Positions 2,047 to 64,000 of a stretch of 64,000 nucleotides of DNA are shown piece by piece. A model generated the notes under the pieces. The model worked only from the letters and a program-made list of their open reading frames with translations. It made no database searches and had not been told where the DNA came from. Position 1 is the first letter of the stretch, and each line of letters starts with the position of its first letter. Source of the stretch: Yuukianura sp. NJ FZ-2021 (Eukaryota); the NCBI GenBank assembly GCA_046563655.1, contig CM102284.1, positions 2,418,001 to 2,482,000 on the forward strand, written 5' to 3'. The position numbers and the translations under genes are program-made.

Positions 2047-3528
2047 GTTGTAGTTAGTTCAATTCCTCACTATGAACGTTCTGCACTTTTCATTGGAATT
2101 CACTTTTTTGTGTAACTTTTTAAAAATTTTAATTTGACCTAATCATTTTAATTAACCACTTCCTAGAAATTCATTCTGGACGAAACACGTAAGATTTTTG
2201 GGAAAACCTCGACTGATTTTGCTTTGTAAGTGCTGAGTTGGAAAGAAAACTTTTGGTAACTTGATGTATTTTTCCTACAACTCAAAATTTTGTTCGTTTT
2301 AGCGGAGTTGGGAAACGGGTTTGACCGGTTGTTCTGTTGTGAAGTGACTCCAATTTTTCCAAAATGAAAATAAATTTTCCAATAAAATGAGAAGTAAATA
2401 CTGGAGTTTAGGACATGGGCTGATGATTCTCCGAATGGTAAAGGAGGAGTGGGCAGTGTGTAGTGGCGGGTAGAACCGTTAAGGGAGTCCTTTGTGTGCC
2501 AGGATTCAGTGGAAAGGTGGTTGGACTGAAAATGTAGTAGAAGGTGGAATTGGGAGATTCATAAAAATATAAGCACTCTCTTACTCGCTCGACGCCTTCT
2601 TTCGTAATTGCAGGTCCATTGTATTTTGAGGATGCGAGAGACGCATCTTGGATCCAAAAGTTCCAAACGACGAAGAGATGAATAAGCAAAGTATTTCCAT
2701 GCCTATAGTCTCCCTCGTTCAATTTTTTTCAACCACGATCACCTTCACGACCTATCATTGGACAATCAATTATTAACATTACCAATACCACATGCTGTGT
2801 CTATTTTTCATCATTTTTTAAAAAAGCCTTAACATTTCGCACAAAAATAGCCTAACGGTATTAGTTTTTTAGTCAAACTTTTTTTTTTGAACATAGTAAG
2901 GTTACATACAGTACAGTATATTTTTTTTCGAACATAGTACAAAATTTATACCAAAAAATTTGTTGGAAATTGGATATTTAAAAAAGGTACATTTGGTGAG
3001 AATTAGTTTATGGAAATGTCATTTGTATGAAGTTCTGTGTTCTATTGAGTAGCTGATTATGACCTTGGAGAGTTTTTGGTTTAACACGAACGTTTAACAC
3101 TGGCCATAAATTGAATCTCATCTATAAGCTAACACTTTTATCGTACAAAAACTTCGCAGTCCTTCATATTCCACTGCTATCAAAAAAAGTGTCCTTCAGA
3201 TTTGGCAAATACTTAATAGTAGGAAACTGCCATAGGCCTAGACAAGGAACCGCGCGTGTCATGAAATCAGTTCCAGAATGTGCTTATGTGGACAAATTGG
3301 TGACTAATTGCGTAAACATGGTATGTTAGAACCACGAACAGAGTCGGAGTCCGTGGGTTTTATGGATGGATGTGCGTATAAGTATACATTTGACATTAAA
3401 GTTTTTATCGCAAATTCTACTTCACTTTTATTCTGGTCATCGTCCGATTCTCACCGAATTCCAACACGACTTTTGCCACGAAATTTTATTTTGGCTTACT
3501 TAGAAGATTCACCTCACTAATCTAAACA

Positions 3529-5381
3529 ATGGGAGATTGCGCAGAAGTTTTGGCAGTGGACAGCACGACTGACCTCATCAAGAACAACATCAAAGTTGCC
3601 TTGAGATCATCCGGAGTAACAGATGAAGTGAAAAGTATTGACCTTGTTCTTCCGCCGGAACTCAGAGGAGAACACTTTGCAACGGAGACTGCTTATGCGA
3701 AGATCCACTTCACGAAGACGTGTCTGCCACCGAAGAATCTCTTCGTTAAAAAGTTCTCCAGCAGTGTAGTGCAGCGCGAAATGGTCAAAAACATGAAGGT
3801 CATGGACAAGGAAGCAGCGTTCTTCAACAAAGTCCTTCCAGCACTTCGCCAATTTTCAAAACGGTTTCCGGGGTTAGAAACAAATTCTGAATTGGAACAA
3901 AAAGAAATCAATTTTTATGAAATATTAATATTTTTTATAATGTTTCTGTTTTGTAGGTGTGAAGATTTGCTGAACTTTTTTCCAAAGTGTCTTTACGCAG
4001 ATGAGGACTGCGTCATTTTGGAAAATTTAGTACTTGACTATGGATATATCATGCTTGACAAGGAGGAACAACAAGACTACGAAGCTGCAAAGTAAGGTGC
4101 ACGTTTAAAATTTTGACTCAGTGTTCATCAAAGAACATTGTTTAATTCAAAATCGAGAATCAAGAAAACAATTTATGAATTTCACTTGAATTTTTTTTGC
4201 AGGCTTGTTTTCACTCATTTGGCGAGATTCCATGCGGTAAACTACGCTTTCATTGAAACGATGGGCAGAGATCAGTTTCTGCGGGAATTCGAACTTAGCG
4301 TCACAGAGTCCTTTGACTTCAGTCCCACCTCTGTCATGGCTCCAATGTTTGATAATGGGCTAGCCACTTGCATAAAAATTCTCCAAGTGAAATACTTTTA
4401 ACTAGTCCATGTTGAATTCCAAAATATTAATTAAGACTTTGTTTTCTAACAAGGACAACCCAATGGAAGGAAGCAAGGAGACAATAGAAAAACTTGGTAA
4501 AATGATTGGACATACTCTGCCAGAGTTGGCTAGCACTCTGGAACGTGACAACAATCACAAACTTCTTGTTTTAAATCACGGCGATTGTTGGTAAGAAATA
4601 TGTACAGTAAAAAAAAAGTTAAAAAAGTATCACTTTTATTAAAGATATTAATTCCTACTTTGTATTTTTCAAATGAAGTTCAAATTTTCACATTTTGATT
4701 AGGAACAACAACATGCTGTTTAAAAAGGACCCGGAGACTGGTCGTCTCTCCGACCACTTGCTTGTGGATTTCCAAGTAACTTTTTTTTTTTAAAAATGCC
4801 TGTGTTTTAGAAAAAAGGATTTTTCAATTTTATAGTGAGGATTTGAATTTGATTCGTTTTGTAAAAACTTGTATTCCACGTCTTTGTAGATCACACGTTA
4901 TGGATCTCCCTGCCTGGACCTTGGTTACTACTTCCTAACAAGTGTCAAACCGGAAGTGCGGAGGGCTCACTTTGAAGATCTCTTGCAACTGTACTTGGAC
5001 GAATTCGAAGCAACTGCAAAGCGTTTGGGCAAAAATTGTCCATCCACTTTCGAGGTACCACAACTTTTGAAAAACAAAACTCCAAAATTCAAAACCCAAA
5101 AATTGCAGTGTAACTTGTGGAGTTTTTAGGAACTATTGGTTGATTTCAAGCATTTTTCCAAACTGGGTTACTACGTGGCTCTGAGCATGATCTCAGCTAT
5201 TGGTGCGTTCAAGAACCTTGAGATGGATGAGCTTGGCACTGATCCAGATCCAGCCAGGATGATGGAGACATTCAACAAAATTATTGCTGACTGGATTGCC
5301 GCTAATCCCGACAAAGCAAACACCAGCGCCAGCGGCATCATCCAATCCGTCAAGGGTTTTGACGAAATTCAGCGGAAGTAA
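3529..5381 (+). CDS. Ecdysteroid kinase-like (EcKL/DUF227, choline-kinase-like) protein, copy 1, 7 exons
   Basis: Spliced ORFs give LFVKK, E..FF, VILENL, LARFHA, LNHGDCW-NNNMLF (Brenner motif) and VDFQITRYGSPCLDLGYY. Confidence 0.9.
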
Positions 5382-6263
5382 ATCCTAAGCAATTTTACAA
5401 AAAACAATAAATTAAAAAGATAACCAAACTTTTGAGCAATTTTGAGACTCCAGAAATCCACTGCTAAATTTATGAACCAGTCGTCAGTATTTCATTCGGT
5501 ATTTCCGTCTGATATCAAACGTGAGTAAGCCTTTGCAGCAATTTATGTTTGATAAAAATCGGTTGAAGGTTGACTCACTGCTAGTTATTGTATGGTTTAA
5601 CAAAATGAAATAACGATATTGTCATGTTAGGCTTAACTTTTTTTGTCATTTTAATTAAGTTAGGTTTGAGTTTTTAAATTTTAGTTGAGTTCATTGCGAA
5701 AGAGATTCGCGTGTAGTTTGAAGTGGTACAATGCAAATGTCATTTTTACGACGTGTTGAATTCGATTGAGTGGATGATTGTGAGGTTGCAGAATTTGAGG
5801 GTCAGTTGACCATAGTGGACTGCTTAACACTTACCATAATTGAACCGCATCTCCAGCTACCACTTATCCTACAAAAAATAGCAGCGTCCTTCACATTTCA
5901 ATACTAACAATCATCAAAGCGACCTTCAGCTTCAGTTAGGCAAAATAATATGAAATCACTCCTAAACTAAACCAGAAACCGCGCGTCATGAAACTAGTTC
6001 CAGGAGCTGTTTATACGCCGTAGTGTTGACAAATCTCGTAAACAGGATTGCAACCTCGACCAAACTTTGAGTCCGTGGTGATTTCGAGATTGGCATTTGA
6101 ATTATCCCTTCTTTGTATTCATTGGTCATCTCACATTCCACTTCACTTTCGTTCTGCGATTTGTCCACTACGCATCAAATTTCAGAATTGGCATTTTTTG
6201 CAACCTCTTGATTAAGTGAGAAGTTAGATTTGACTTAACTAAGCTAAAAAATTAAGTTGAACA

Positions 6264-8147
6264 ATGGGAGATTGCGCAGAAACACCACAAGGAGACAGCA
6301 TGATTGATTTGATCAAGAACAACATCAAAGTGGCCTTGAGGTCATCCGGAGTCACAGATGAAGTGAGTAGTATTGACATCATTCTTCCACCGGAACTCAA
6401 GGGAGAACACTTTGCAACGGAGACAGTTTATGCAAAGATTCACTTTGCGCAAGCGTCTCTGCCACCGAAGAATCTCTTCGTCAAGAAGTACTCCAGCAAT
6501 AAACTGCACAGCGACATGATCAGAAAGATGAAAGTCATGGACAAGGAAGCCGCTTTCTTTAACAAAGTCCTTCCAGAACTCCGCAAATTTTCAAAACGGT
6601 TTCCAGGGTTAGAAAGGAACTCTGAAATGGAACAAAAAGAAATCAATTTTTTGAAATACTGATATTTTGAATGTTTCTGTTCTGTAGGTGTGAAGATTTG
6701 CTGAACTTTTTCCCGAAGTGTCTTTACGCAGATGATGACTGCGTCATTTTGGAAAATTTAGTACTTGACTATGGATACATCATGCTCGACAAGGAGGAAC
6801 AACAAGACTATGAAACTGCAAAGTAAGATGGACGTTTAAAATTTTGACAAAAATTTAAAAAAAAAAAATTCAGTAAGATATTCTTTTAACTAAAAATCAA
6901 GATGTATGAATCTCATTCTAATTTTTTGTGTAGGCTTGTTTTTACCCACTTGGCGAAATTCCATGCGGCCAATTACGCTTTCATTGAGACGATGGGCAGA
7001 GATCAGTTTTTACGGGAATTTGAATTGAGCGTGACGGAATCGTTTGACTTCAGCCCCACTTCTGACATGGCCCCAATGTTCGACAATGGAATCGCCACTT
7101 GCATCAAAATTCTCCAGGTACTTATTTAAATAATTTAAGTAAGTTTCAAAAACATTTTAACTTTACACTACTGCATTCAAAAACATTAATTTTTTAAAAC
7201 TTTTTTTTAAATAAAGGACAACCCAATGGATGGCAGCACGGAGACCATAGAAAAACTTGGTAAAAAGATTGGACACACTTTGCAAGAGTTGGCTACCACC
7301 CTGGAACGAGACAACAATCAAAAGCTTCTTGTTCTGAATCACGGCGATTGTTGGTACGCATAAGCAATTCTAAAACTTAATTAAAACGCAAAAATTAAAA
7401 TCACAATATACGTATTAAAAGTAGCAAAGTACGACAGTTTAAGTTTCTTTACTGTCTATACTTTTACTTTTGACTTTTTTTAAAATTGTTTTTGTTTTGT
7501 ATAGGAACAACAATATGCTGTTTAAAAAGCATCCAGAAACTGGAAAGATTTCGGATCACTTGCTTGTGGATTTCCAAGTAAAAAATACAATTTTCAAAAA
7601 AAATTATTATTTCGCTTTCACAATTTTGGCAACAATTTTAATGTATCTTTTTGATTAACAGATCACACGATATGGATCTCCTTGCCTAGACCTTGGCTAC
7701 TACTTTTTGACGAGTGTGAAGGCCGATGTGCGGAGGGCTCATTTTGAGGATCTCCTCAAACTGTACCTGGAAGAATTCGAAACAACTGCAAAGCGCTTGG
7801 GCAAAACATGCCCAGTCTCTTTCGAGGTGAAACACAATTCGAAATTCAAAATTCAAAAAATTAATAAGGTAATGCTCATCCTGGCGAATTTTTAGGAACT
7901 GGTGGCCGACTTTAAGACTTTTTCCAAACTTGGTTACAACATGGCTCTGAGCATGATGTCAGCCATTGGCGCCTTTAAGGACTTGGACATGGATGACTTT
8001 GGCACTGATCCAGACCCAGCCAAGATCATGGAGAAATTCAACAAAATCATTTCCGACTGGATTGAAGCCAATCCAGACAAAGCAACCACCATCTCCAGCA
8101 ATGTCATAGAATTTGTCAAAGATTATGAAGAACTCCAACGCAAGTGA
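6264..8147 (+). CDS. EcKL protein, copy 2 (tandem paralog), 7 exons
   Basis: Same exon structure and motifs (HGDCWNNNMLF, DFQITRYGSPCLDL) as copy 1, with high similarity throughout. Confidence 0.9.
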
Positions 8148-20415: not shown

Positions 20416-22874
20416 ATGGACATCCGACTTTTAGTCGTTCTTGGAATATTTAACTTCCTCTCGCCAACGCAGTCAGCCTACAACATTTCAGGTAAAATTT
20501 TATTTATATTTTGCAAAAATTCTTAAATATTCAACTCAAATTGATTGAATACTGCATAATTTTTATTCCAGAATTGACAATGGAACTTGACAACGATGGT
20601 GAAGATTCGCACAGTTTGGATCCAGATGAAATCCAAGATTTGATGAGCCTTGACCTTGACATTTCCTCTCCCACCACCACAAGTACATCGCTTATTTCAA
20701 TAATTGCGTCACTCGAGGGAAAAGAAGAAGCTCCGCCCCCAAATGATTCCCCGCCAATCCCCGCTTCCCAATCTCCACCAATCACGATCTACGAATCCCC
20801 ACAAATTGAACAACCCAATGTGAACACAACAGCTACTGAGCTTGTTGTTGACGAAACATTAGAAACTGAGGCTGAAAATGTAATGGTTCAGGAAACCACC
20901 GAGGAATCGAATCCGCCACCCCGATATCCAAGTCCGCTTAAGGAACCACCAGTACTGGACCCAATTCCACCACAATTTTACTCCAGTCGACGCTACAACT
21001 TATTCCTCCCTCATGGAACAATGTATAAACAAAATTTTGTGCTGGACGCACCACCTCCCGCGAAACTGCCACCGATTCAAACACTATTGCCGAAAGGTAG
21101 AGATACGTTTTTCCCGCTTTTATTGCCGTACAAGCATGGTCACGTGTATCGTCCACTACAAACTTATGGGATTCTGCGCAGTGTGCCACAGAGACTACTA
21201 GATCCTGTTCAGCAGAGTTTGAATTCGTCGCGGGATTTTATGTCCAGGTTTCGTCGGTTTCAAGCAAACGAGAACTTTTTCGAAAAAAGTTACCAACCGC
21301 AACAAAATTATGTCCAGAATCCGTACTCTATGAGCCCTCCGATGCCTTATCGTCCAGGGCCATATGAGCCTTGGACTCCAAACAATTATTTCTCAAATGA
21401 CATGCGCAGACCATACAACTACCAGAATCCATACAACCTTTACTCTCCGCCTGCCCAGTTTGGTCCATTTTTGCCAGTGGACAAAATGAGCCAATTTAGT
21501 AACTATCCAACTCCAAATCAGAATTATGACCAGTATCCACCCAGTTTCTACAACAGGAAAGACGGTCACATTTTTGTGTTTCCCATGGGGTTCAGCGGTG
21601 GCTCTCTCAACACCTACAGAGGTCAAATTCCAGCCAGTGCTTCCAGAATGTCTGTTCCAGCCACTGGATCCCGAATGCCGAGCTACAGTGACAACGTAAG
21701 GCCTCACTCCTACTACGCTACACCTTTGAACCAACCACTGATCCCTTTTCATGCTCGACAAGGTACTGGGCAAGGCTGGTCCACCACGCCGGGTGCCCAA
21801 GGACTCTCAAATCCGCATGGACTCTGGGGGCCTGGTAGAGTTGACGCGCCGACGCAGGAATTCCGATCACAAGGGACTGGGACTCGACCTTGGCCTGGTC
21901 CAGCTCCTCGCCAGACGACGAACCCTTGGGAAACGTACAGGCAAATTGAGAGGGTTCCGCCCACGGCATACTACGGAAAAGACTGGAGAAAAGCAACCAA
22001 TCCTGGAGCAGGAGAAGCAACCAATCAGAGAACGGGAGGAGCAGCACTCGGAGGTGAAGCTGGACGATCTATTGGTCAAAGTGGACCAGCTTCTGTCTCA
22101 TATCAACCAATCAATGCAGGACCAAGTGCCGGAGGACATGGAGTCGTCACTGGAGTTAGAAAAGTCAACCCGTTCACCTACTTTGTCGGAAATGAAAGGT
22201 CAAAGGTCACCGGTGAATATGACAACGCAGTTCCCAGGAGTGGACCAACTCCAACGTCTACTGTCACAATCCCAGGGTCCAAACTCCCAGTATGACGTCA
22301 ATTCTAAACAACTAACATTATTTTAAAAAAAATCAAGATAGTTTCAAAAAATTTTGAGCAAGGTTTTTTGCTAATGAAAATTTTGACCGTTGCTTAGGAA
22401 CAAGCACCCAATACTGAGAGTGGCCAAACGACAGAAGTTCCTGTTCTGCCGTCGTCTGGGGGATCAGTGCCGTTTTATTCACAGTCAGCGATCGACGGCC
22501 ACTACCGAAGGATGTCTAACCACAATGAAACAACTAGCGATTTGGAATTTGAAGACGATTCTCACCTACTGCAATGGTACATACAGCGAGGTCAACAAGT
22601 TCTACGATCGCGCAATCGCCAAAATCCCACCCACGAAAGCACCAACAACCACCCACCGCCCACTTCCACCCCCGCCCCTCTTCCCCGTAGACGACGCTCA
22701 ATTGAACAACCAAGCAAATCTACCATATCAAACGAATTTCCAGGAGCAGGAGCTGCCACAAATCCGGATCATGCTGAAACCAATGACTTTTGGTCAGAGT
22801 CAACCAAGGTCAACCGGAGGTCAGCAGACTTCGGCTTCTCTGGGTCAGCCATATTACCGAACAGATTACTCTAG
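20416..22874 (+). CDS. Large secreted Cys-free Pro/Tyr/Gln/Gly-rich protein (~756 aa; exons 20416-20491, 20572-22289, 22398-22874)
   Basis: Signal peptide MDIRLLVVLGIFNFLSPTQS, a 1.7-kb open exon, in-phase splice sites, and AATAAA at ~22927. No domain recognised. Confidence 0.7.
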
Positions 22875-32728: not shown

Positions 32729-41065
<8,337 letters not shown>

Positions 41066-42093
41066 GGCCCTTTCGAGAGCCGCAAATTGATCAACGAGGC
41101 GTGACGGTCTAGCCAGGATGAAGGCTGTGGTGTTGTGTTCCACGCTACAGAAGCGTGGTCCACAACGAATTCCTCCGAAGTTACAAAAGCAATAGCTGGG
41201 GTTTGGTACCTGGTTATAAAGATAAAAATGGCTGTTTAACGCCAACTTTCAACTGTAACGACACTGAAAAAAAGCGTATGTTGGTTCTCTAACCTTATTA
41301 GTTGTGTACTAAAGCCTACGCTGGTCAAAACCCTTCCGATCCAGTCATATTGAGTTAAAAAGTTAGTGGGTGCCGAGAACACGAAACAAATCCAGCCGAG
41401 CACTGTACTCGGTAGGAAGGATACTGTGGCAAGCTAATTTAAAACCTCTTCCTCCTCCACAACATTCGTTATATGATGCTGTATCAAAGACGAACCGCAG
41501 CCTTTGCGGTTATGATTTCTTATCCCCCCTTTAACTTCAATCGGCTTCAACATTTCATTTTAGACAACAATTTATGTTTGGTTGCTCTTCGTAAATTAGT
41601 AAACCTGAAATAAAAAGGAAAAAATCAGTGCTCTCTTTCGAGTAATTGGAGATTTTTCTTTTCTGAAATGTGATACGAACTCGGAATAGACTAAATACTG
41701 GGAGTGGGAACCATACCTAAATATGCTTAACTTCGGTAGAATTGTCGGAATTGATAAACATTTACAAAAATTTACTACTCAAACTCAAATGAAGGACATA
41801 GATGAAGTTATCAAATAAATACATTGGAAGTATTTTCTAACCTAAATCCACGCCCAAATCAATGGTTAGATTTTTAAATTTTTTGTTTACAAATTAACGT
41901 GCTCGATTAACTTTATTTTTACTAAAAAGATGCGAGCAGCAAACAATGCTACCAAATTCCGTCATGAACTCAAAAGAAAAAAAAACAGCCAAAAAATGTA
42001 GTAAACCAAATTCTACAACTGCGTGAATACTTAATTAATTTATTGGTTCAATCAAAAGACTTGTATGGTTTACCTTAAGCGAAGGCAGATAAG

Positions 42094-44920: not shown

Positions 44921-47547
44921 TTACTTGTAGTAGACTTTGGTTCCTTGCTGTACTAGAAACTGTTTCAAACCGGTCAAATTCGAAAATATTTTTTTTGATA
45001 CTAAAAGTAATATTTCAGACAACTGCATTACCAGCGTGAAGGCAAATGCAAATACGTAAATGAAGAATATCGTCTGAATGCTATCGTGCATACTAATTGG
45101 TTTGACTAGCATTACGGTATTGTTTGCGCTATTTTGAAGTGAAAACTGAGTTCTTTGTGGTCCTTGTGTGAGAATCATATCAGCCAACCAATGATAAATA
45201 CCCGCTTCCACAATTATTTTAAAATAAAGCGGTATTCTGGACTCTCCGTAGTTTGCAAATTGCCAAACCCGAAAACTATCAAAAATCTGAGCTTCGCTAA
45301 GCCTAAAGTGAATTCCTTTGTAATATCGTTCTAAATATTTTTTCTCCTTTAGTACGCGAGTTAACGTTTCAACATAAGCCGTACGTCCACATTGAGTGAT
45401 ATTCTTTTCCACAGCACTATCATATGGAATGGAGCTGTTGACAGCAGATTTTTTGTCAACGAATACCAAATTCTTTCCGTCACGCTCACTCCACGGAGGC
45501 GGATGCCGACATCTATACGGATTCAAAAGGTGCCACAATAGTTTGTCGTCGCGATGTGGCGGGAATAATGTTGCGTTTGCTTCCCAACTTGTTCTACGCA
45601 ATAACATTCTTCTTTCGTTCCTCTTAAGCATTTCGTTAAATCTTGAATGCTGAATTCTAATATCATTGCCATCATGCGTTTCATCTGGATCTTGAGCATA
45701 CAAACGAAATTCCGTTTCGTTTAGTTCACGGAATTGCGTTTCCAACGTCCTTTGTTGATAGTACTGATGCGAAACATTATACGAGGCATTCGAAGCATCA
45801 TACAATTCTTCAAACTTGGTGACAGATTCCCTGGGTAGTGGAGCTGTAATTGACGTAATGGCTATTCCTTTGTAAGCATTTGTAAATATAATTCCAACAA
45901 GGAGCCATTTGCCTAATACAATGCGAAATTCACGACGGTTCTCAATTTTACTTGGAATTGTTGCGGACTGTTCAACGACAGTTGATGCCATGAAGATGTA
46001 TGGCGAAAAGTGGCTTGATGGTATCCGTAGTAGCCAAATACTCACGTCGGTCAAAACGGCCAAAATACAAATTTGGATAATAAGGCCAATCCAAAGGTTC
46101 GGTTGAAACGGTGTAACGTAATATTCAAAAGATAGAACTGGGTTTGAGTAACAAGTCAAAAACCGGTATTCATCTTGTTCTGTTGGTACTACAGTTGTGT
46201 CCGGAGCGAAGGTAAAATAGCAGGAGGACGACTGAGAATGACCGGCAACGCCAAATGGACTCTCAGCAAATAGATTCATGTCTGGAACAAATGTCGGATT
46301 TGCTCGCTCTTGCTCAGTTGCGGTTGTCAAGTATTTGAACTCAATAGCTGTTGTAGTTGAGTTTCCTTTAGTCAGCAGAAGATTTAAAACAAAGTGCTCC
46401 AATATCTTCTTTCCCCTCGCCTGCATGTTTGCCGGGTTAGTATTTTTCTGAACCTCGCTTTTATAAAAATGAAATCTGGCTTCGCTTTGCGAGCTCAACT
46501 GTCGTATCCAAATATTTCCGCTGAGGTCTTCAGAAAATATACTTTTGAAGGTTGTATCAGAGAAAAGAAGGAACGGATCAACCTATAAAACCGGTATTAC
46601 GTTCATCTTATATTGAGAAAAGGTTTGGTCTGAAATTGCAACGCGTGACCAGGACGCTTACAATGTGTTAAAAAAGAAATCGGCAGGGGACGCCACTACG
46701 TTATATAAGAAGATACTGAAATTGAATACAAGTTTCTTTGAAACGAGTTTTCAATATTTCTAAAAATTTGTCATACGCGCATTTTAAGCAATGTGCTAAC
46801 CTGGCGCCAAGAAGCTGGTGAGCATTTGGGGCAAGCAGCGAAACCTGCTGATTTGCTTCGCAGAAGACGCCGCGTAGTGTTTCCTTCTCTTTGTTTCTCC
46901 CAATAGTCATTGATGAGTAGCACGGCAACATGTACGAAATAAGAATTGTAAGGACGATATAAGTTAAGCAAAAGTGGTTTTGTAGAAACATTCCAACCCG
47001 GTTGCAAAATTCTATAAATGTGCAAAATGTACGTTCTGAATTTCACGTTGATTTGCTTAGGAACTGGAATACCACGATCCGGATCCCAGCTACCATCGGG
47101 CCTAAGGCCCAACTTCGTGCAAACGTGGCTGAATTTAATTTGAATCCCAAAACTATAAACATCCAAAGCTATTTCCCACCATGGTTGCACAAATCCTCTA
47201 TTTTGCCTCATTTCACGGGGACCATTGTGGTCAAATATAATAACATTATAAATACATTTGAAAAATCGGATGTTAATGAAGGGTAGTGAACGGATTTCAG
47301 ATTGAGAGGGGTTGCCAGTGGTTTTAGTTAGAAGTATTGGGTTGCGTATCGTAATTTCTCCAAATCTGATCATAGTTGATGCTATAAATACATTGATGGC
47401 ACATGTTGTATTGATGTTGCTTAATACAGACTCCAGGTTTTCAAATTCTTTTGCGTCTTCTTTATCCGGTTGGCTGTTACATTCAACAGTCCAAAGGCGG
47501 ACAAAAGTGACAAGTATGGTCACTATTATGAATATCGGCGTTGACAT
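44921..47547 (-). CDS. Divergent ionotropic receptor (IR)-like protein, 2 exons (47547-46801, 46582-44921), ~802 aa
   Basis: Signal peptide. A phase-0 intron CAG|gttagc...ttttatag|GTT joins the two ORFs. RFLTCY...YVTPFQPNLW (pre-M1), VLGKWLLVGIIFTNAYKGIAITSITAP (M3), IVEAGIYHW, and a final TM SIQTIFFIY. Confidence 0.8.
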
Positions 47548-58540: not shown

Positions 58541-58991
58541 CATTAAATTAGAAAATTCAATCAATCGCTTCTACGCATTTCCATAGTCGCTAATATTTTA
58601 GTTCCGCCAAAATACTAACCAAATCAAATAAATACGCTTCTTAAAACAGCGATGATGCAAAATTTTAATTAGAAAAAAATTACGATTTAGAAGAGTACTA
58701 GAAAACCACAAGTTTCTAAAAATTGTAATGCAATTATTATACGTTAGTCTAAGTTATAAGCAAAGTGGCAAAGGGAAGTCGATGAACAATACGATTTTTC
58801 TCAACTCAAATGTTTATTTATGGAAATCAAAACATGTTATTTACTTGCACTGAAGAGGAAATGAAACGATCGTATCTTTATCAAATGATTATAATAATTT
58901 TCTTAAGTACTTTGCTTTGTTTATGGGCAATAACCCCAATGGTCAACCCAGTCTTAGCCGGTCAAAGGTCAAGGTCTGAAGTGGAATCAGC

Positions 58992-59301
58992 TTAGCCGCA
59001 ACAGTACGAGTTGAACCTGCCTTCGTCGCAGGGATTGGTGAAAATCCGTCCCATAGCAGCAGGGCACTGTGGATACCCAGGAGCACATCCGGTGAAGAAG
59101 CATTGAGCCACACGATCTACAAAAATAGTGTTTCAAGATATATTCCAAAAGTAGAATTAACTAACGATAAGTAAGTCCTTAAAATTTAGGAAATAGTTAT
59201 GCAAAAATGAACTCACTTGGGTTGAATGGCGGAAATGCAGATGCAAGCGTCACGGAGACTACAATAATAAGGAAGAAAATTGGCACGATTTTGAATCCCA
59301 T
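58992..59301 (-). CDS. 69-aa secreted six-cysteine (defensin-like) peptide, exons 59301-59217 and 59116-58992
   Basis: MGFKIVPIFFLIIVVSVTLASA-FPPFNPNRVAQCFFTGCAPGYPQCPAAMGRIFTNPCDEGRFNSYCCG*; canonical A|gtgagt...tttgtag|AT phase-1 intron. Confidence 0.85.
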
Positions 59302-60097: not shown

Positions 60098-61074
60098 ATG
60101 AAGCGTGATTTGCCATCGCAGATCTACATACCCGTGGTAAACAATCCCAAAGGTATGATAACAGTTTATATTTCTGAAATTTAATCTGAACTCATGTTTT
60201 AAATTTGGAAAACAAGAAAAATGGTTGGCGCTGTTCAAACTAAAGCATGAATGTTGATTTGCACAGGGTGGATATTACAGGAAGAGCAAGAAATGGCAGC
60301 TCCAGCAAAGCGCATGCGTGATTCGATAAATTGGAAGAAATCGAGTACTTTTGCTGTAGTCATGACTGTAGCCCTTCTTGGTGGAATAGCGGTTGGATGG
60401 TTCATCAAACCATGTCAGCAATTTCGAAATTACAAAAAATTCAAACTCGTTTTCATAATTTTACTCTGTTTAAAAACTTCCGTAACCTTTATTGCATTAT
60501 AAACGTTTTCAGGTCATGTGGCTCCTGCGCCTTCCCCGACGACTACCACTGAGGCACCAAGTTCAACCACAGTCACTGACCCTCCATTCCCACCACCAAC
60601 AAGACATGTAAAAACTTTTTTTAAACAAACGCGTTGAAAATGGTTGATAGCATTTTAAAAAAATTGAATTGGTCATTTCAGCCACTGCCTCCTCACCCTG
60701 AGACTATACCTCCAATAAGTCTCCTTTACCAGATGGGAATGAATCCAAATTTTACGGAAGTCAATTGCGCCATCAAAACTCCTCCAGTATATAAATACAA
60801 CCTTGTTGTTAGTGGTCATACCTTCACCAGTCCAGGCAAATTCAAATTAAAATTTCAAAATATTTTTGCATAATCGCTCATTACGCAAAATTTGTCTCAA
60901 CTAACAGCAGTTGCACACATGTTCAACGAAACTTTTATTTTTAACTTAGGTGGAGATGAGAAAAAAATGGCCAAAACTACGGCAGCTATGGTTGCCAATG
61001 AAGCACTTTTTAAAATTAGGTATCCTTCTATTCCTCAACCGAAATCAGAATGCGAAATGATTGCAGACGTTTAA
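60098..61074 (+). CDS. Type II membrane protein: TM + Pro/Thr stalk + dsRBD-like domain, copy A (191 aa; exons 60098-60152, 60267-60413, 60513-60607, 60682-60835, 60950-61074)
   Basis: All splice phases match (intron 4 is GC-AG). TM FAVVMTVALLGGIAVGWFI. dsRBD-like PPISLLYQM...PVYKYNLVVSGHTF..PGGDEKKMAKTTAAMVANEALF. AATAAA at ~61233. Confidence 0.75.
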
Positions 61075-61587
61075 ACGAAATGAAGCACACAACAACATCA
61101 ATAGTTTGTCCTAACAATTAAAAGACTGTTTTTTTCGTTGCTTTTTTGCTTCCATTGTGACACTTTTGGTGTCAAAAATTTGGTGGAAAAATTTAGTTCT
61201 CTTCTAAAAACAATTTCTAATCTAGGTTTGTGAATAAACTCCAAAATTCTTTTAGTTTGCATTTATTTTATTTAGGTTGAACATTATTTTATTACATCAT
61301 CATAAAACAGAGAAGCTAAAAACCATTGATCACACAATTCTAAAGAAAACTTGTTTTGCAGAGGTCTTGTTTTTGCACATACTATGACAAATGCATGGCC
61401 GCATTTCTTGGAAGTGGTGGACGATGATTATAATAAGTCTATGACTTATCGGCAAAAATGTAGAGTTTTAAAAGCAGAGGCAGAGGCTTCATTCCGTTCT
61501 GTGGTTTTAAGAAAGCAGTGTGTAGAAATTAATTGCTGAAAACTAAAATTTTGATTCTGAAGGTCTAAAAAGCCGAAGCTTTTTAAA

Positions 61588-61901
61588 ATGAATCTGGATC
61601 CAGCCAATGAGTTCTACTTACCCGTCGTTCATACTGATAAAGGTATATTCTACAAAAAAGCAATTTGGTTGGAAGCACTACTTATTCAGCTTTTTTTTTT
61701 TCACTTGAATTTGAAATTAATTTGAAATTATTTGTTATAACGATTTTGATAGGTTGGATTTTACGAGAGGAGCAAGGGAAAGTTACGGTGATGCGTGCGC
61801 CTGCGCCGATAGATTGGAAGAAATGGCTGATCCTCGCTGGAGTTTTGGTCGGGGGTCTGGTTGGCGGAGTTGTTATTGGGTGGTTCATCAAACCTTGCTA
61901 G
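61588..61901 (+). pseudogene. Copy B of the same family, only exons 1-2 (N-tail + TM); truncated copy or alternative 5' module
   Basis: MNLDPANEFYLPVVHTDKG|WILREEQ...IDWKKWLILAGVLVGGLVGGVVIGWFIKP. The donor is changed to gctagt. No stalk or dsRBD exons were found before copy C. Confidence 0.55.
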
Positions 61902-63206
61902 TTTCAATTTTCAAAAAAAAATTACAACTTCCCAAAAAGTTTCTATACTTTCATTTGAACCGATGCACTTTTGACTTTATTTTAAGCTATCTTCATCTTA
62001 AATTCTGTAACTTCTGTAGCTTCGAAAAAATAAATCTATTATCAACTGTTTGGTTTTATATAATCTGCAACTGGCTGTATTTTCAACATTTTCTAGAATG
62101 ATTTCAAACGTTGTATTTTTTTTTTAGAATTCCCGGCTAATCTTTATTTGCACACATCGGCAAATCCACAATGCACACAAAGCCACTGCTGATTAATCAT
62201 AATTCGGCTATCTTATTGCAGATAAACAATGCATATAAAAACCTAGAATACTAGACAACCCTGTTTGTAGAAATTTTCAAAATGCAGAAATAGTGAGTAG
62301 GTAGACGTTATATTAATGAAGAATATTGTCTCTGGAATTCATTAGCGTTTTTAGTTAATTTTAACAAATTTTATCCAACATTATCAGATTAATTTTTTAT
62401 ACTAGCGGTTGTATGAGCACGTATGCTAGATTATAAACTGTACACTCATAAACGCTAGGTACTGACATTTGACTTTACATTGACCTTAGATTTTATACAT
62501 ACGTAAAAGCAAAGCGTCGGCATAAACCACCTCAAATAACGAGACAATTAAAACACATTCGTCTTAATTCTACTAAGTAAGTCGTCGCGACTTAATAGGG
62601 CCACTGAGCCACTCATTGATTATTAATTTTTTAAGCAGGATATTATTTACAATAAAAAATTGTACATTGCTAAATAATATGTAATTGCAATGAAATACAA
62701 ATTCAGTCTTAAACCAATTAAACTGTCATAAATCAGACTCCCGTACATAAAACCAGAAACCCAAGGAACATTAAAATTTAGTTATCAGTTTTGACTGCAT
62801 TGGAAGTTAAAAGTACTTTGCCTTTAGGTCCTGAGTTTCTAAGTTTTGATTACAATTGTCTTCAGTATTTGCAAAGTTTGCAATTACTTAGAAAAACATG
62901 ACTCATCTTCACCGGACACTGAACGATAAAGCCACAAAGCTAAATTGATTGCTCATATAAGTTTTCCGGCCGGCCGGACAACTTTGATAGCCCGGCGGCT
63001 ACCAAAAACATTATCCAGTGTCTTAGTTTTTGCAAATGACGAATGCAAGCTTGTAATTCTTAGAAGCAGATATGACGATATGACTCAACTGAAGAATAGT
63101 TTCAGCAAATCACAACCTTCATTCGTTCTTGAGCAGCCTTTCCAAACTGGTTGCAAAATCAAAAGCATTTTAGTTGCAATTTTGGAGTCGAACAAAAAAG
63201 TTGGAA

Positions 63207-64000
63207 ATGAGTCCTGAATTTAGCGTGCCAATTGTTATTTCTGACAAAGGTATGGAGGAATTTTCTACAAACAAAAATACACACTAATCTTAAAATTTTA
63301 ATGATGTATTCAAGCCTTATGCAAAAGCCAATCCTTAATTACCTAAAAATTGAAAAATTTGAACGTCCAGTTATTTATTCTAACTTTGCATTTGTATATA
63401 TTGATTTTTTGTAGGTTTGCTATTGCGAGACGAACAAACGAGAGTTGCAATAATGCGCGTGCGTGATCCGATCGACTGGAAGAAATGGCTTATTCTTGCG
63501 GGAGTTTTGGTTGCAGGCCTGATTGGAGGAGTAGCTATTGGGTGGCTCATCAAACCATGTTAGTAATTTCAAAATTTTAATTTTTTTTTAAATTGGTTTT
63601 GACAATTCAGCTTGACACAATTTTCAATAAATCCAGGCCAGCCCGCTCCTCATCCAACACCAACAACAACAACTACCCCTCCGCCGCCTACGAAGGCAAC
63701 CGAATCCACGACGACTAATACGGTCCTCCATGATACCATCGAGGAAGTCGCCATGATGCTTGAGGACACTCCGTTTCCGCCTCCAACAACACACGTAATA
63801 ACATACTACAAAATAGTAACTAAGTATAAATATATTTAACAGTTATTTAGAAATAATCTACAATTTTATGTTTCTTTTTATAATATTTTTCAGCCATTGC
63901 CTGAACACCCTGAAAAGAGGCCGCCAGTGAGCCTTCTCTATGAAATGGGCATGAATCCAACGTTTACGGTTGTCAACTGCGCTCTGGCATCACCCCTGGT
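63207..64000 (+). CDS. Copy C of the TM-stalk-dsRBD-like family (runs off the window end); exons 63207-63249, 63415-63558, 63637-63794, 63894-end
   Basis: MSPEFSVPIVISDKG|LLLRDEQ...DWKKWLILAGVLVAGLIGGVAIGWLIKPC|QPAPHPTPTTTTT...FPPPTTH|PLPEHPEKRPPVSLLYEMGMNPTFTVVNC. Confidence 0.8.

Follow-up and report, generated by a model that had tools for sequence, protein, structure and literature searches.

A tandem cluster of predicted type II membrane proteins carrying a very divergent dsRBD in Yuukianura sp. NJ FZ-2021

Results

Gene structure of the cluster

Two related units and a 5′ fragment of a third, which we call copies A, C, and B, respectively, lie in tandem on the forward strand at the end of the window, meaning the whole 64-kb stretch of DNA (64,000 nt) that was analyzed (Table 1). 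The wider gene content of the window includes EcKL, PICK1-like, atlastin/GBP, ZSWIM8, and SLC23-like genes and is suggestive of an arthropod. When joined, the five exons of copy A (60098-61074) form an open 576-nt coding sequence for 191 amino acids with intron phases of 1, 1, 0, and 1, and this spliced model has the architecture that the original prediction described: a short N-terminal tail, a basic patch, one transmembrane (TM) span, a Thr/Pro-rich stalk, and a C-terminal domain. All of the peptides quoted in that prediction are present in the sequence where it had placed them. The tail encoded by exon 1 of copy A holds a conserved motif, Y/F-x-P-V/I-V ... K. Introns 1-3 of copy A are of the GT-AG type; the donor of intron 4 is GC (CAG/GCAAAT), lacks +5G, and stands at an ancestral GT site where the homologues show GT, and a full-length copy A product would depend on the use of this GC splice donor.

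The earlier proposal of three paralogous units with identical exon phases holds for two of them. Copy C has the exon phases of copy A, GT-AG introns, and 150 codons without a stop in its visible part; its exon 5 lies beyond the end of the window. Copy B, by contrast, is a 5′ fragment consisting of exons 1 and 2 only and is not a complete unit: the donor of its exon 2 is altered from GT to GC in a poor context (T/GCTAGT), an in-frame TAG follows at 61899-61901, and with copy A as the query, tblastn detected neither stalk nor domain exons in the interval 61900-63200.

Table 1. Exons of the three tandem copies, in window coordinates
Feature	Position	Strand	Remarks
Copy A exon 1	60098..60152	+	Start codon and N-terminal tail; ends in phase 1; donor GTATGA
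Copy A exon 2	60267..60413	+	G-W-I-L-Q-E-E-Q motif, KRMRDSINWKK basic patch, 22-residue uncharged span, then IKP-C
Copy A exon 3	60513..60607	+	Thr/Pro-rich stalk, 31 aa, S+T+P 65%, C-terminal end PFPPPTRH
Copy A exon 4	60682..60835	+	PLPPHPE linker, then dsRBD alpha1, beta1 (NFT sequon, Cys128), beta2, beta3
Copy A exon 5	60950..61074	+	Region 3 of the dsRBD (KKMAK) and alpha2, then a Pro-rich tail (contains Cys185) and the stop codon
Copy B exon 1	61588..61642	+	N-terminal tail
Copy B exon 2	61753..61901	+	Basic patch and TM span; range includes the in-frame TAG, exon proper 61753-61896
Copy C exon 1	63207..63249	+	N-terminal tail; motif without Tyr
Copy C exon 2	63415..63558	+	Basic patch, TM span, IKP-C
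Copy C exon 3	63637..63794	+	Longer stalk, 52 aa, S+T+P 56%
Copy C exon 4	63894..64000	+	Reads PLPEHPEKRPPVSLLYEMGMNPTFTVVNC...; runs off the window end

Coding constraint and relatives

Values of dN/dS were 0.13-0.24 for pairs of paralogues and against an environmental homologue, with dS saturated. On an environmental contig from another organism (L003), a stalk exon is followed by domain exon 4 and then domain exon 5, the order seen in copy A, and the intron between the two domain exons, 57 nt long and of the GT-AG type, matches copy A in codon position. Given this coding-frame constraint and the recurrence of the exon order in L003, the exons are more than chance.

Few relatives were found: three clusters among 1.84 billion proteins, all unannotated. 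A phmmer search with exon 4 against the 1.84 billion representatives gave four matches at E<=0.001, namely three unnamed relatives and one repeat protein; the latter (P0005, 666 aa, E 2.4e-5) was judged a spurious repeat match and was excluded from every alignment. No further relatives were found by a word-index search with the "longer" lengths, and a profile search returned only the same three. A scan of viral contigs with the read-through sequence P0131, which detects close relatives only, gave no match. As part of the best explanation set out below, we tentatively regard the family as lineage-restricted tandem paralogues.

Similarity of the C-terminal domain to dsRBDs

The original prediction likened the C-terminal domain to dsRBDs, and profile-profile comparison bears this out: the C-terminal approximately 90 residues are a very divergent dsRBD. 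Using hhalign, the spliced family profile matched a profile of 30 proteobacterial RNase III dsRBDs with a probability of 87.8% (P 3.4e-6; score 34.0), the alignment being 50 columns long and collinear from beta1 to alpha2. The reversed family profile scored 12.3, the maximum among 26 profile windows from unrelated real proteins was 15.2, and 200 column shuffles all stayed below the observed score, peaking at 17.8. Taken separately, the two halves of the domain each aligned to the corresponding dsRBD segment (P 0.0034 for exon 4 and P 0.00079 for exon 5), and the match persisted when copy A was left out (P 1e-5) and when unspliced alignments were used (P 8.8e-5), the latter skipping exactly the intron-coded insert.

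At the level of single sequences the signal is faint, with hhalign probabilities of 4-27% and scores of 5-10 bits with the RNase III dsRBD HMM. An HMM match to dsrm had been proposed as a check, and it came out in part: Pfam searches at E<=10 found neither dsrm nor any other family in the contiguous pieces (P0001-P0004, P0006-P0008, and P0131), and since spliced copy A scores just 10.3 bits with the RNase III dsRBD HMM (9.4 bits was reached by 1 of 1,500 shuffles), the match exists at the profile-profile level only. Sub-threshold hits to Imm8 and DUF5869 in the Pfam search were noise. A search started from the E. coli RNase III dsRBD collected relatives that were all at least 87% identical, and the resulting narrow profile was uninformative (hhalign P 0.023).

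Four other methods gave weaker evidence in the same direction as the profile match. In an hmmsearch of the PDB (177,635 sequences), the sole match at E<=10 was the dsRBD of DRB2 (E 1.5 and 0.53); phmmer searches of the PDB with single exons gave no match. The nearest cluster to exon 4 in a language-model atlas was dsrm (score 0.90), and exon 5 alone had low recognition and no dsrm cluster there. Two AlphaFold2 models, both of homologues with intron-coded inserts and both of low confidence (pLDDT 45.5 and 37.7), had the order H-E-E-E-(insert)-H; the third strand fell within the intron-coded insert in the first model, and all three strands lay in exon-coded sequence in the second. Among the first 10 Foldseek matches, dsRBD proteins made up 9 for one model and 7 for the other, with none at E<=0.001. 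The best match of the first model was STAU1 "RBD"5 (E 1.6, not significant), which we take to be a dsRBD that does not bind RNA. A complex prediction for the exon 4 and exon 5 peptides scored 0.11 against a mark of 0.34 and gave no verdict.

Predicted membrane topology

Each product has a charged N-terminal tail of 38-43 residues ahead of a single hydrophobic span of 22 uncharged residues with a mean hydropathy of about 2.3 (in copy A, a Kyte-Doolittle value of 2.29 for residues 44-65, at about 60341-60406). Residues 1-20 lack hydrophobic character, in keeping with the absence of a cleavable signal peptide. The net charge of the N-terminal flank of the span is +4, +3, and +3 in copies A, B, and C, against +1 for the C-terminal flank, so the positive-inside argument made originally stands in all three. 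From these features we predict a type II signal-anchor with N-in/C-out orientation, which would probably place the C-terminal domain outside the membrane.

The Thr/Pro-rich stalk varies in length and reaches 89% Ser, Thr, and Pro in the partial L003 sequence (27 aa); it is mucin-like and probably O-glycosylated. The extra cysteines pointed out earlier proved to be a pair conserved wherever both positions are visible, in four of four sequences (copy A, P0007, P0009, and L003), and exon 4 of L003 has three N-x-S/T sequons within 51 residues. The composition of the stalk, the conserved Cys pair, and the N-glycosylation sequons are consistent with the N-in/C-out topology. A juxtamembrane cysteine (IKPC) present in all three copies might just as well be palmitoylated on the cytosolic side.

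Residues expected to contact RNA

Region 3, in register with K-r-x-A-E of RNase III, reads KKMAK in copy A, which thus retains KKxAK at the N-terminus of alpha2, KKRAQ in P0007 and P0009, and RQTAK in L003. The alpha1 contact position retains a polar residue (E, Q, or D), and beta1 and beta2 each retain an aromatic one. No member has the His of the GPxH loop (region 2, between beta1 and beta2): the column aligned with it holds T, I, I, Q, and S, within loops of the sequences AIKTPP, EPTIPL, NLRIPP, ISQQPP, and ALASPL. Because this loop is variable among true dsRBDs, the absence of its canonical form lowers the expectation of canonical RNA contacts more than it does that of membership in the fold. 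The isoelectric point of the domain is 7.2 in copy A and 8.7 in P0007, presumably less basic than in typical dsRBDs.

Discussion

Proposed function and alternatives

The best explanation that we can offer, and a tentative one, is that the cluster encodes tandem type II membrane proteins of approximately 190 residues whose divergent dsRBD would sit on the exoplasmic side and capture extracellular dsRNA. From N- to C-terminus, such a protein would comprise a cytosolic tail of approximately 40 residues, a signal-anchor TM helix, the stalk, the divergent dsRBD, and a Pro-rich tail ending in a conserved Cys, with the C-terminus facing the cell surface, the gut lumen, or the lumen of an endosome. 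The tethered domain would bind RNA, either duplex or otherwise structured, with the lysines of alpha2 and the polar residue of alpha1 as its main contacts; the C-terminal tail, possibly disulfide-linked via the conserved Cys pair, would replace the missing GPxH loop; and extracellular dsRNA would thereby be captured. A YxxPhi motif in the N-terminal tail of copies A and B could couple this capture to endocytosis. A receptor function for extracellular dsRNA is our hypothesis from sequence features. A bolder version, which we consider unlikely, is that these proteins would form a new class of arthropod dsRNA receptors: type II membrane glycoproteins of the cell surface or gut lumen whose mucin stalk would bear a dsRBD stapled by a disulfide. 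They would capture environmental or viral dsRNA and internalize it via the tyrosine-based tail motif, and theirs would be the first dsRBD known to act beyond the cytosol and nucleus.

The same exoplasmic fold might instead have lost RNA binding and serve on its mucin stalk as a protein- or glycan-recognition or dimerization module, a role that intracellular type B dsRBDs, which do not bind RNA, are known to fill. The absence of the GPxH loop from all members, the only partly basic region 3 of the homologues (KKRAQ, RQTAK), and the isoelectric point of 7.2 in copy A all suit such a loss, as would the remodeled surface suggested by the extra Cys pair and Pro-rich flanks, and the best Foldseek match of the first model, at its non-significant E of 1.6, was STAU1 "RBD"5. 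Yet KKMAK is intact in copy A, each homologue keeps at least two of the three basic positions of region 3, and a polar residue persists at the alpha1 contact position, so that we rate loss of RNA binding as somewhat unlikely. Quite unlikely, in our estimation, is the reverse orientation, in which the dsRBD would face the cytosol on the ER, an endosome, or another organelle and tether or sense RNA such as viral replication intermediates, with the Thr/Pro segment a mere flexible linker. All characterized dsRBD proteins are intracellular, and the IKPC cysteine after the span in all three copies would suit palmitoylation in the cytosol, but the flank charges (+3 or +4 against +1) oppose this orientation in three of three copies, the charged tail of 38-43 residues would need to be translocated, and neither a conserved Cys pair nor clustered sequons would be expected in the cytosol.

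Two further readings question the protein itself or its kinship. With a GC donor lacking +5G at an ancestral GT site in copy A and a truncated copy B, the locus may be decaying, and with copy B reduced to a 5′ fragment and the exon 4 GT donor of copy A lost, little or no full-length protein might be made from what the window shows of the locus. Two ancestral donors have changed from GT to GC (intron 4 of copy A and intron 2 of copy B), and copy B has its in-frame TAG and no downstream exons; we nonetheless find such decay quite improbable, as the context of the copy A donor is near-consensus and the whole coding sequence is open, the sites of copy C are canonical where visible, and dN/dS is 0.13-0.24. 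Finally, the dsRBD likeness could be convergent or due to chance, the C-terminal domain being an unrelated small alpha+beta ectodomain, in line with the lack of a Pfam match on contiguous pieces, the weakness of single sequences (5-10 bits; hhalign probability 4-27%), and the low confidence of both AlphaFold2 models. This we hold to be very unlikely, given that the profile match keeps its register across 50 columns and greatly outscores 200 shuffles and 26 unrelated profiles, that the two halves of the domain match independently and collinearly, and that dsRBDs come first in three unrelated methods (PDB hmmsearch, the language-model atlas, and Foldseek).

Comparison with known systems

Like canonical dsRBD proteins (PF00035 dsrm: RNase III, Staufen, Loquacious/TRBP, R2D2, PKR, ADAR, and plant DRBs), the family shows a predicted alpha1-beta1-beta2-beta3-alpha2 order, G-x-x-K-K-x-A-K...A-A at the N-terminus of alpha2, the beta1 and beta2 aromatics, and the alpha1 polar contact residue. 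Whereas the canonical proteins are soluble in the cytosol or nucleus, the family domain follows a predicted signal-anchor TM span and a mucin-like stalk, lacks the GPxH loop, has an added Cys pair, Pro-rich flanks, and sequons, and is too divergent for a Pfam match on contiguous pieces.

Among dsRNA receptors, SID-2 of C. elegans, a single-pass receptor of the intestinal lumen, is likewise a small membrane protein with a proposed luminal RNA-binding ectodomain and a part in dsRNA internalization; it has no detectable sequence similarity to the family, is type I, and contains no dsRBD. TLR3, an endosome-luminal dsRNA sensor, recognizes dsRNA on the exoplasmic face of the membrane, as proposed for the family, but does so as a type I protein with a leucine-rich-repeat ectodomain and a TIR signaling domain and without a dsRBD. 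The class A scavenger receptor SR-A binds polyanions via its collagenous stalk, and unlike the family it is trimeric, much larger, and equipped with an SRCR domain instead of a dsRBD. It nevertheless resembles the family in its type II orientation, short cytosolic tail, extended stalk, and small C-terminal domain, and endocytic uptake of extracellular dsRNA is the role also proposed here. For this receptor (MSR1/SR-A), a type II membrane protein, uptake of extracellular dsRNA has been reported (PMC3662657). With the domain exons as queries against the 1.84 billion representatives, we found no kinship to SID-2, SID-1/SIDT, scavenger receptors, or TLR3, and no named protein. For the wordings that we used, open-access full texts yielded no description of a membrane-anchored or extracellular dsRBD, and the combination of membrane anchor, mucin stalk, and dsRBD looks new.

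As far as we are aware, dsRBDs are considered to function exclusively inside cells, and we know of no SID-2-type receptor in arthropods, in which the uptake of extracellular dsRNA bears on environmental RNAi, antiviral spread, and RNAi pesticides. A dsRBD fold with a disulfide and glycans in the secretory pathway would be out of the ordinary even if it did not bind RNA. If the proposed explanation is true, the family would offer a specific dsRNA receptor candidate that is easy to test, an exoplasmic dsRBD tethered to the membrane, and evolution would have put an old domain to a new use.

Gene structure and conservation of the tandem family

All of the peptides quoted in the original prediction were found in the sequence at 60098-64000. 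The three paralogous units with identical exon phases that it described resolve into two units with the same phases, copies A and C (the latter cut by the window end), and one 5′ fragment, copy B. Joining the exons of copy A yields an open CDS of 576 nt (191 aa) with intron phases 1,1,0,1, in which introns 1-3 are GT-AG and the donor of intron 4 is CAG/GCAAAT (slash, exon-intron boundary). Copy C has GT-AG sites and continues for 150 codons without a stop to the window end. The exon-2 donor of copy B is T/GCTAGT, the frame then runs into TAG, and no stalk or domain exon was found by tblastn between copies B and C. At the amino acid level, copy B is 66% identical to copy C versus 53% to copy A. 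It might serve copy C as an alternative 5′ module, spliced to exon 3 of that copy at 63637. Left unspliced (61588-61901), copy B would give a 67-aa peptide of tail plus TM that ends IKPC-stop. The GC donors at 60835/60836 and 61896/61897 are two visible donors of the cluster, and paralogues or the environmental homologue on contig L003 have GT there.

Gene models of the three copies and other features of the window
Feature	Coordinates	Strand	Remarks
Tandem paralogous ORF pair	3526-4095; 6261-6662		first matches EcKL (ecdysteroid kinase-like) family, Pfam E 4.4e-10; second compared by eye
599-aa ORF	20496-22295		Pro/Gln/Tyr/Asn-rich, low-complexity in appearance; no Pfam family
ZSWIM8-like gene	32862-41248	-	large, multi-exon; TPR_ZSWIM8 E 1.2e-34, ZSWIM4-8_C E 1.2e-49
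553-aa ORF	44921-46582	-	uninterrupted; several hydrophobic stretches; no Pfam family at E<=0.001
Small gene directly upstream of cluster	58943-59300	-	hydrophobic N-terminus (MGFKIVPIFFLIIVVSVTLASA...), then Cys-rich exon without Pfam family; product looks like a secreted peptide
Copy A	60098-60152, 60267-60413, 60513-60607, 60682-60835, 60950-61074	+	exons join to an open CDS
Copy B	exon 1 61588-61642, exon 2 61753-61896 only	+	N-tail and TM exons
Copy C	63207-63249, 63415-63558, 63637-63794, 63894-window end	+	phases as copy A

The sequence of the window is eukaryotic and its introns are short. Pfam families in its larger ORFs include EcKL, PDZ with Arfaptin (PICK1-like), a GBP/atlastin-type GTPase, ZSWIM8, C2H2 zinc fingers and Xan_ur_permease, a gene content compatible with an arthropod.

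A phmmer search of 1.84 billion representative proteins with the 51-aa exon-4 peptide gave four matches at E<=0.001, three of which are true relatives: P0006, P0007 (with its cluster member P0009) and P0008. The fourth, the 666-aa repeat protein P0005, was dropped, and two word-index searches added no further relatives. The three true relatives are ORF calls that read through the intron on unannotated Logan or JGI contigs, and none is named. In L003, the 1814-nt contig behind P0008, the Thr/Pro exon ends PPFPPTTK/GT; the next exon starts PLPANATNYPPVSLL and ends ...FTSEG, its GT donor falling on the codon position of copy A's GC, and a 57-nt intron then leads to an exon with ...RRQTAKDGAAMVACEAIF...WPC. 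Thus, the stalk-to-domain exon order is kept in another organism, in a contig that ends before any TM exon would be seen. Downstream of this homologue (1309-1674), a 121-aa ORF resembles by eye a retroelement reverse-transcriptase fragment.

Probable assignment of the C-terminal domain to the dsRBDs

The proposed dsRBD was supported by profile-profile comparison and left without a Pfam hit on contiguous pieces, where single exons, read-through homologues and P0131 (a read-through peptide from L003) gave nothing at E<=10. We built an independent dsRBD profile from E. coli rnc, for which a PF00035 search of 121 genomes of its phylum returned a match in every genome, using the 30 loci returned. 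Aligned by hhalign to this profile, a family alignment that combined spliced copy A with exon 4 of copy C and the homologues after removal of their introns scored 34.0 (probability 87.8%, P 3.4e-6) over 50 in-register columns, placing the family F/Y on the beta1 Y, its Y/F on the beta2 F, and G..KKxAK..AA on G.sKrxAE..AA. The reversed family scored 12.3, and none of 200 column shuffles reached the observed score (mean 9.7, sd 2.3, maximum 17.8). Among 26 windows of 77 columns from unrelated families (Era, LepB, RecO and the RNase III catalytic domain), the mean was 11.8 and the maximum 15.2, and the single high score among rnc windows, 25.5, fell in the window from column 183, near the dsRBD-bearing 3′ end. 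Exon 4 (columns 23-48, P 0.0034) and exon 5 (columns 56-73, P 0.00079) matched the profile separately and collinearly. The match persisted without copy A (P 1e-5), and an unspliced comparison of alignments A4 and A5 (P 8.8e-5) opened an 18-column gap precisely over the intron-coded insert. The profile-sequence signal was weak, with 10.3 bits for copy A and 5.3-5.5 bits for the homologues, the best of 1,500 shuffles reaching 9.4.

Positive signals from other searches were weak. The DRB2 dsRBD was the sole match at E<=10 when family alignments were run by hmmsearch against 177,635 PDB sequences (E 1.5 with A1, 0.53 with A4), aligning at the KKxA...AA helix; phmmer found no PDB match for the exon 4 or exon 5 peptide alone. 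In a language-model atlas, the cluster nearest to exon 4 was a dsrm one, at a score of 0.90 with 160 features in common; the best ten family-bearing matches of exon 4 were all dsrm, as is also the case for one third of shuffled proteins, and exon 5 alone found no dsrm cluster. AlphaFold2 models of two homologues with intron-coded inserts, both of low confidence (pLDDT 45.5 and 37.7), ran from a helix through three strands and the insert to a long helix, with all three strands exon-coded in the second model alone and the third strand within the insert in the first. Foldseek returned nothing from the PDB at E<=0.001 for either model, and dsRBD proteins filled nine of the top ten rows for one and seven for the other. 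Overall, the domain belongs among the dsRBDs: it is very likely a true, very divergent member, and probably one below the Pfam cut-off.

Predicted topology, RNA-contact positions and alternative readings

Each copy has one uncharged 22-residue span (mean hydropathy ~2.3) and an N-terminus that is not hydrophobic. Net charge over the 15 residues before the span is +4, +3 and +3 for copies A, B and C, against +1 over the 15 after it, which bears out the N-in/C-out argument of the original prediction. By the positive-inside rule, these flanks predict that the span is a type II signal anchor and that the dsRBD is exoplasmic, a sequence-based assignment that we consider likely. Ser, Thr and Pro together account for 65% of the 31-aa stalk of copy A, 56% of the 52-aa stalk of copy C and 89% of the partial, 27-aa stalk of L003, and N-x-S/T sequons number three in the 51 aa of L003 exon 4, two in P0007 and one in copy A. 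The extra cysteines noted earlier are invariant in the family and, compared with canonical dsRBDs, are additions at the beta1 end and ~12 residues past alpha2 within a tail rich in Pro (P.P...C); another addition is the linker ahead of alpha1, which is of the PLPPHPE type.

The most likely reading, still a tentative one, is that the dsRBD is membrane-tethered and exoplasmic and that it binds duplex RNA via alpha2 and alpha1. At the alpha1 contact, canonically E, copy C has E, copy A, P0007 and P0006 have Q, and L003 has D (LLID, by eye from P0131, the region being absent from the alignment for L003). For region 3, canonically KKxAK, copy A reads KKMAK, P0007 KKRAQ and L003 RQTAK. The His of the beta1-beta2 loop (canonical GPxH) is missing in all (AIKTPP, EPTIPL, NLRIPP, ISQQPP, ALASPL), and the domain pI is 7.2 in copy A and 8.7 in P0007. 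An exoplasmic dsRBD fold in which RNA binding has been lost is a possible but doubtful alternative.

A tethered dsRBD facing the cytosol is unlikely. Depending on the side of the membrane on which it lies, the Cys of IKPC, directly past the span, may be linked by an interchain disulfide (outside) or palmitoylated (inside). We give the same low standing to a decaying locus, which is favored by GT-to-GC changes at two ancestral donors and by the truncation of copy B. Nei-Gojobori dN/dS values, rough since dS is saturated, were 0.21 for A versus C, 0.13 for A versus B and 0.21 for B versus C, and a similarly rough 0.24 for copy A versus the environmental homologue over exons 4-5. Least probable is a chance resemblance to dsRBDs.

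To our knowledge, this architecture matches no known dsRBD protein, and full-text searches of the open-access literature turned up no account of a dsRBD that is anchored in a membrane or lies outside the cell. In function, the family would have its counterparts in SID-2, class A scavenger receptors and TLR3, which share no sequence with it. On the preferred reading, the tethered exoplasmic domain would bind duplex RNA through alpha2 and alpha1, with a disulfide-fixed C-terminal tail replacing the lost beta1-beta2 loop, and, more speculatively, the conserved N-tail motif (YIPV in copy A, YLPV in copy B, without Tyr in copy C) may couple binding to endocytosis.
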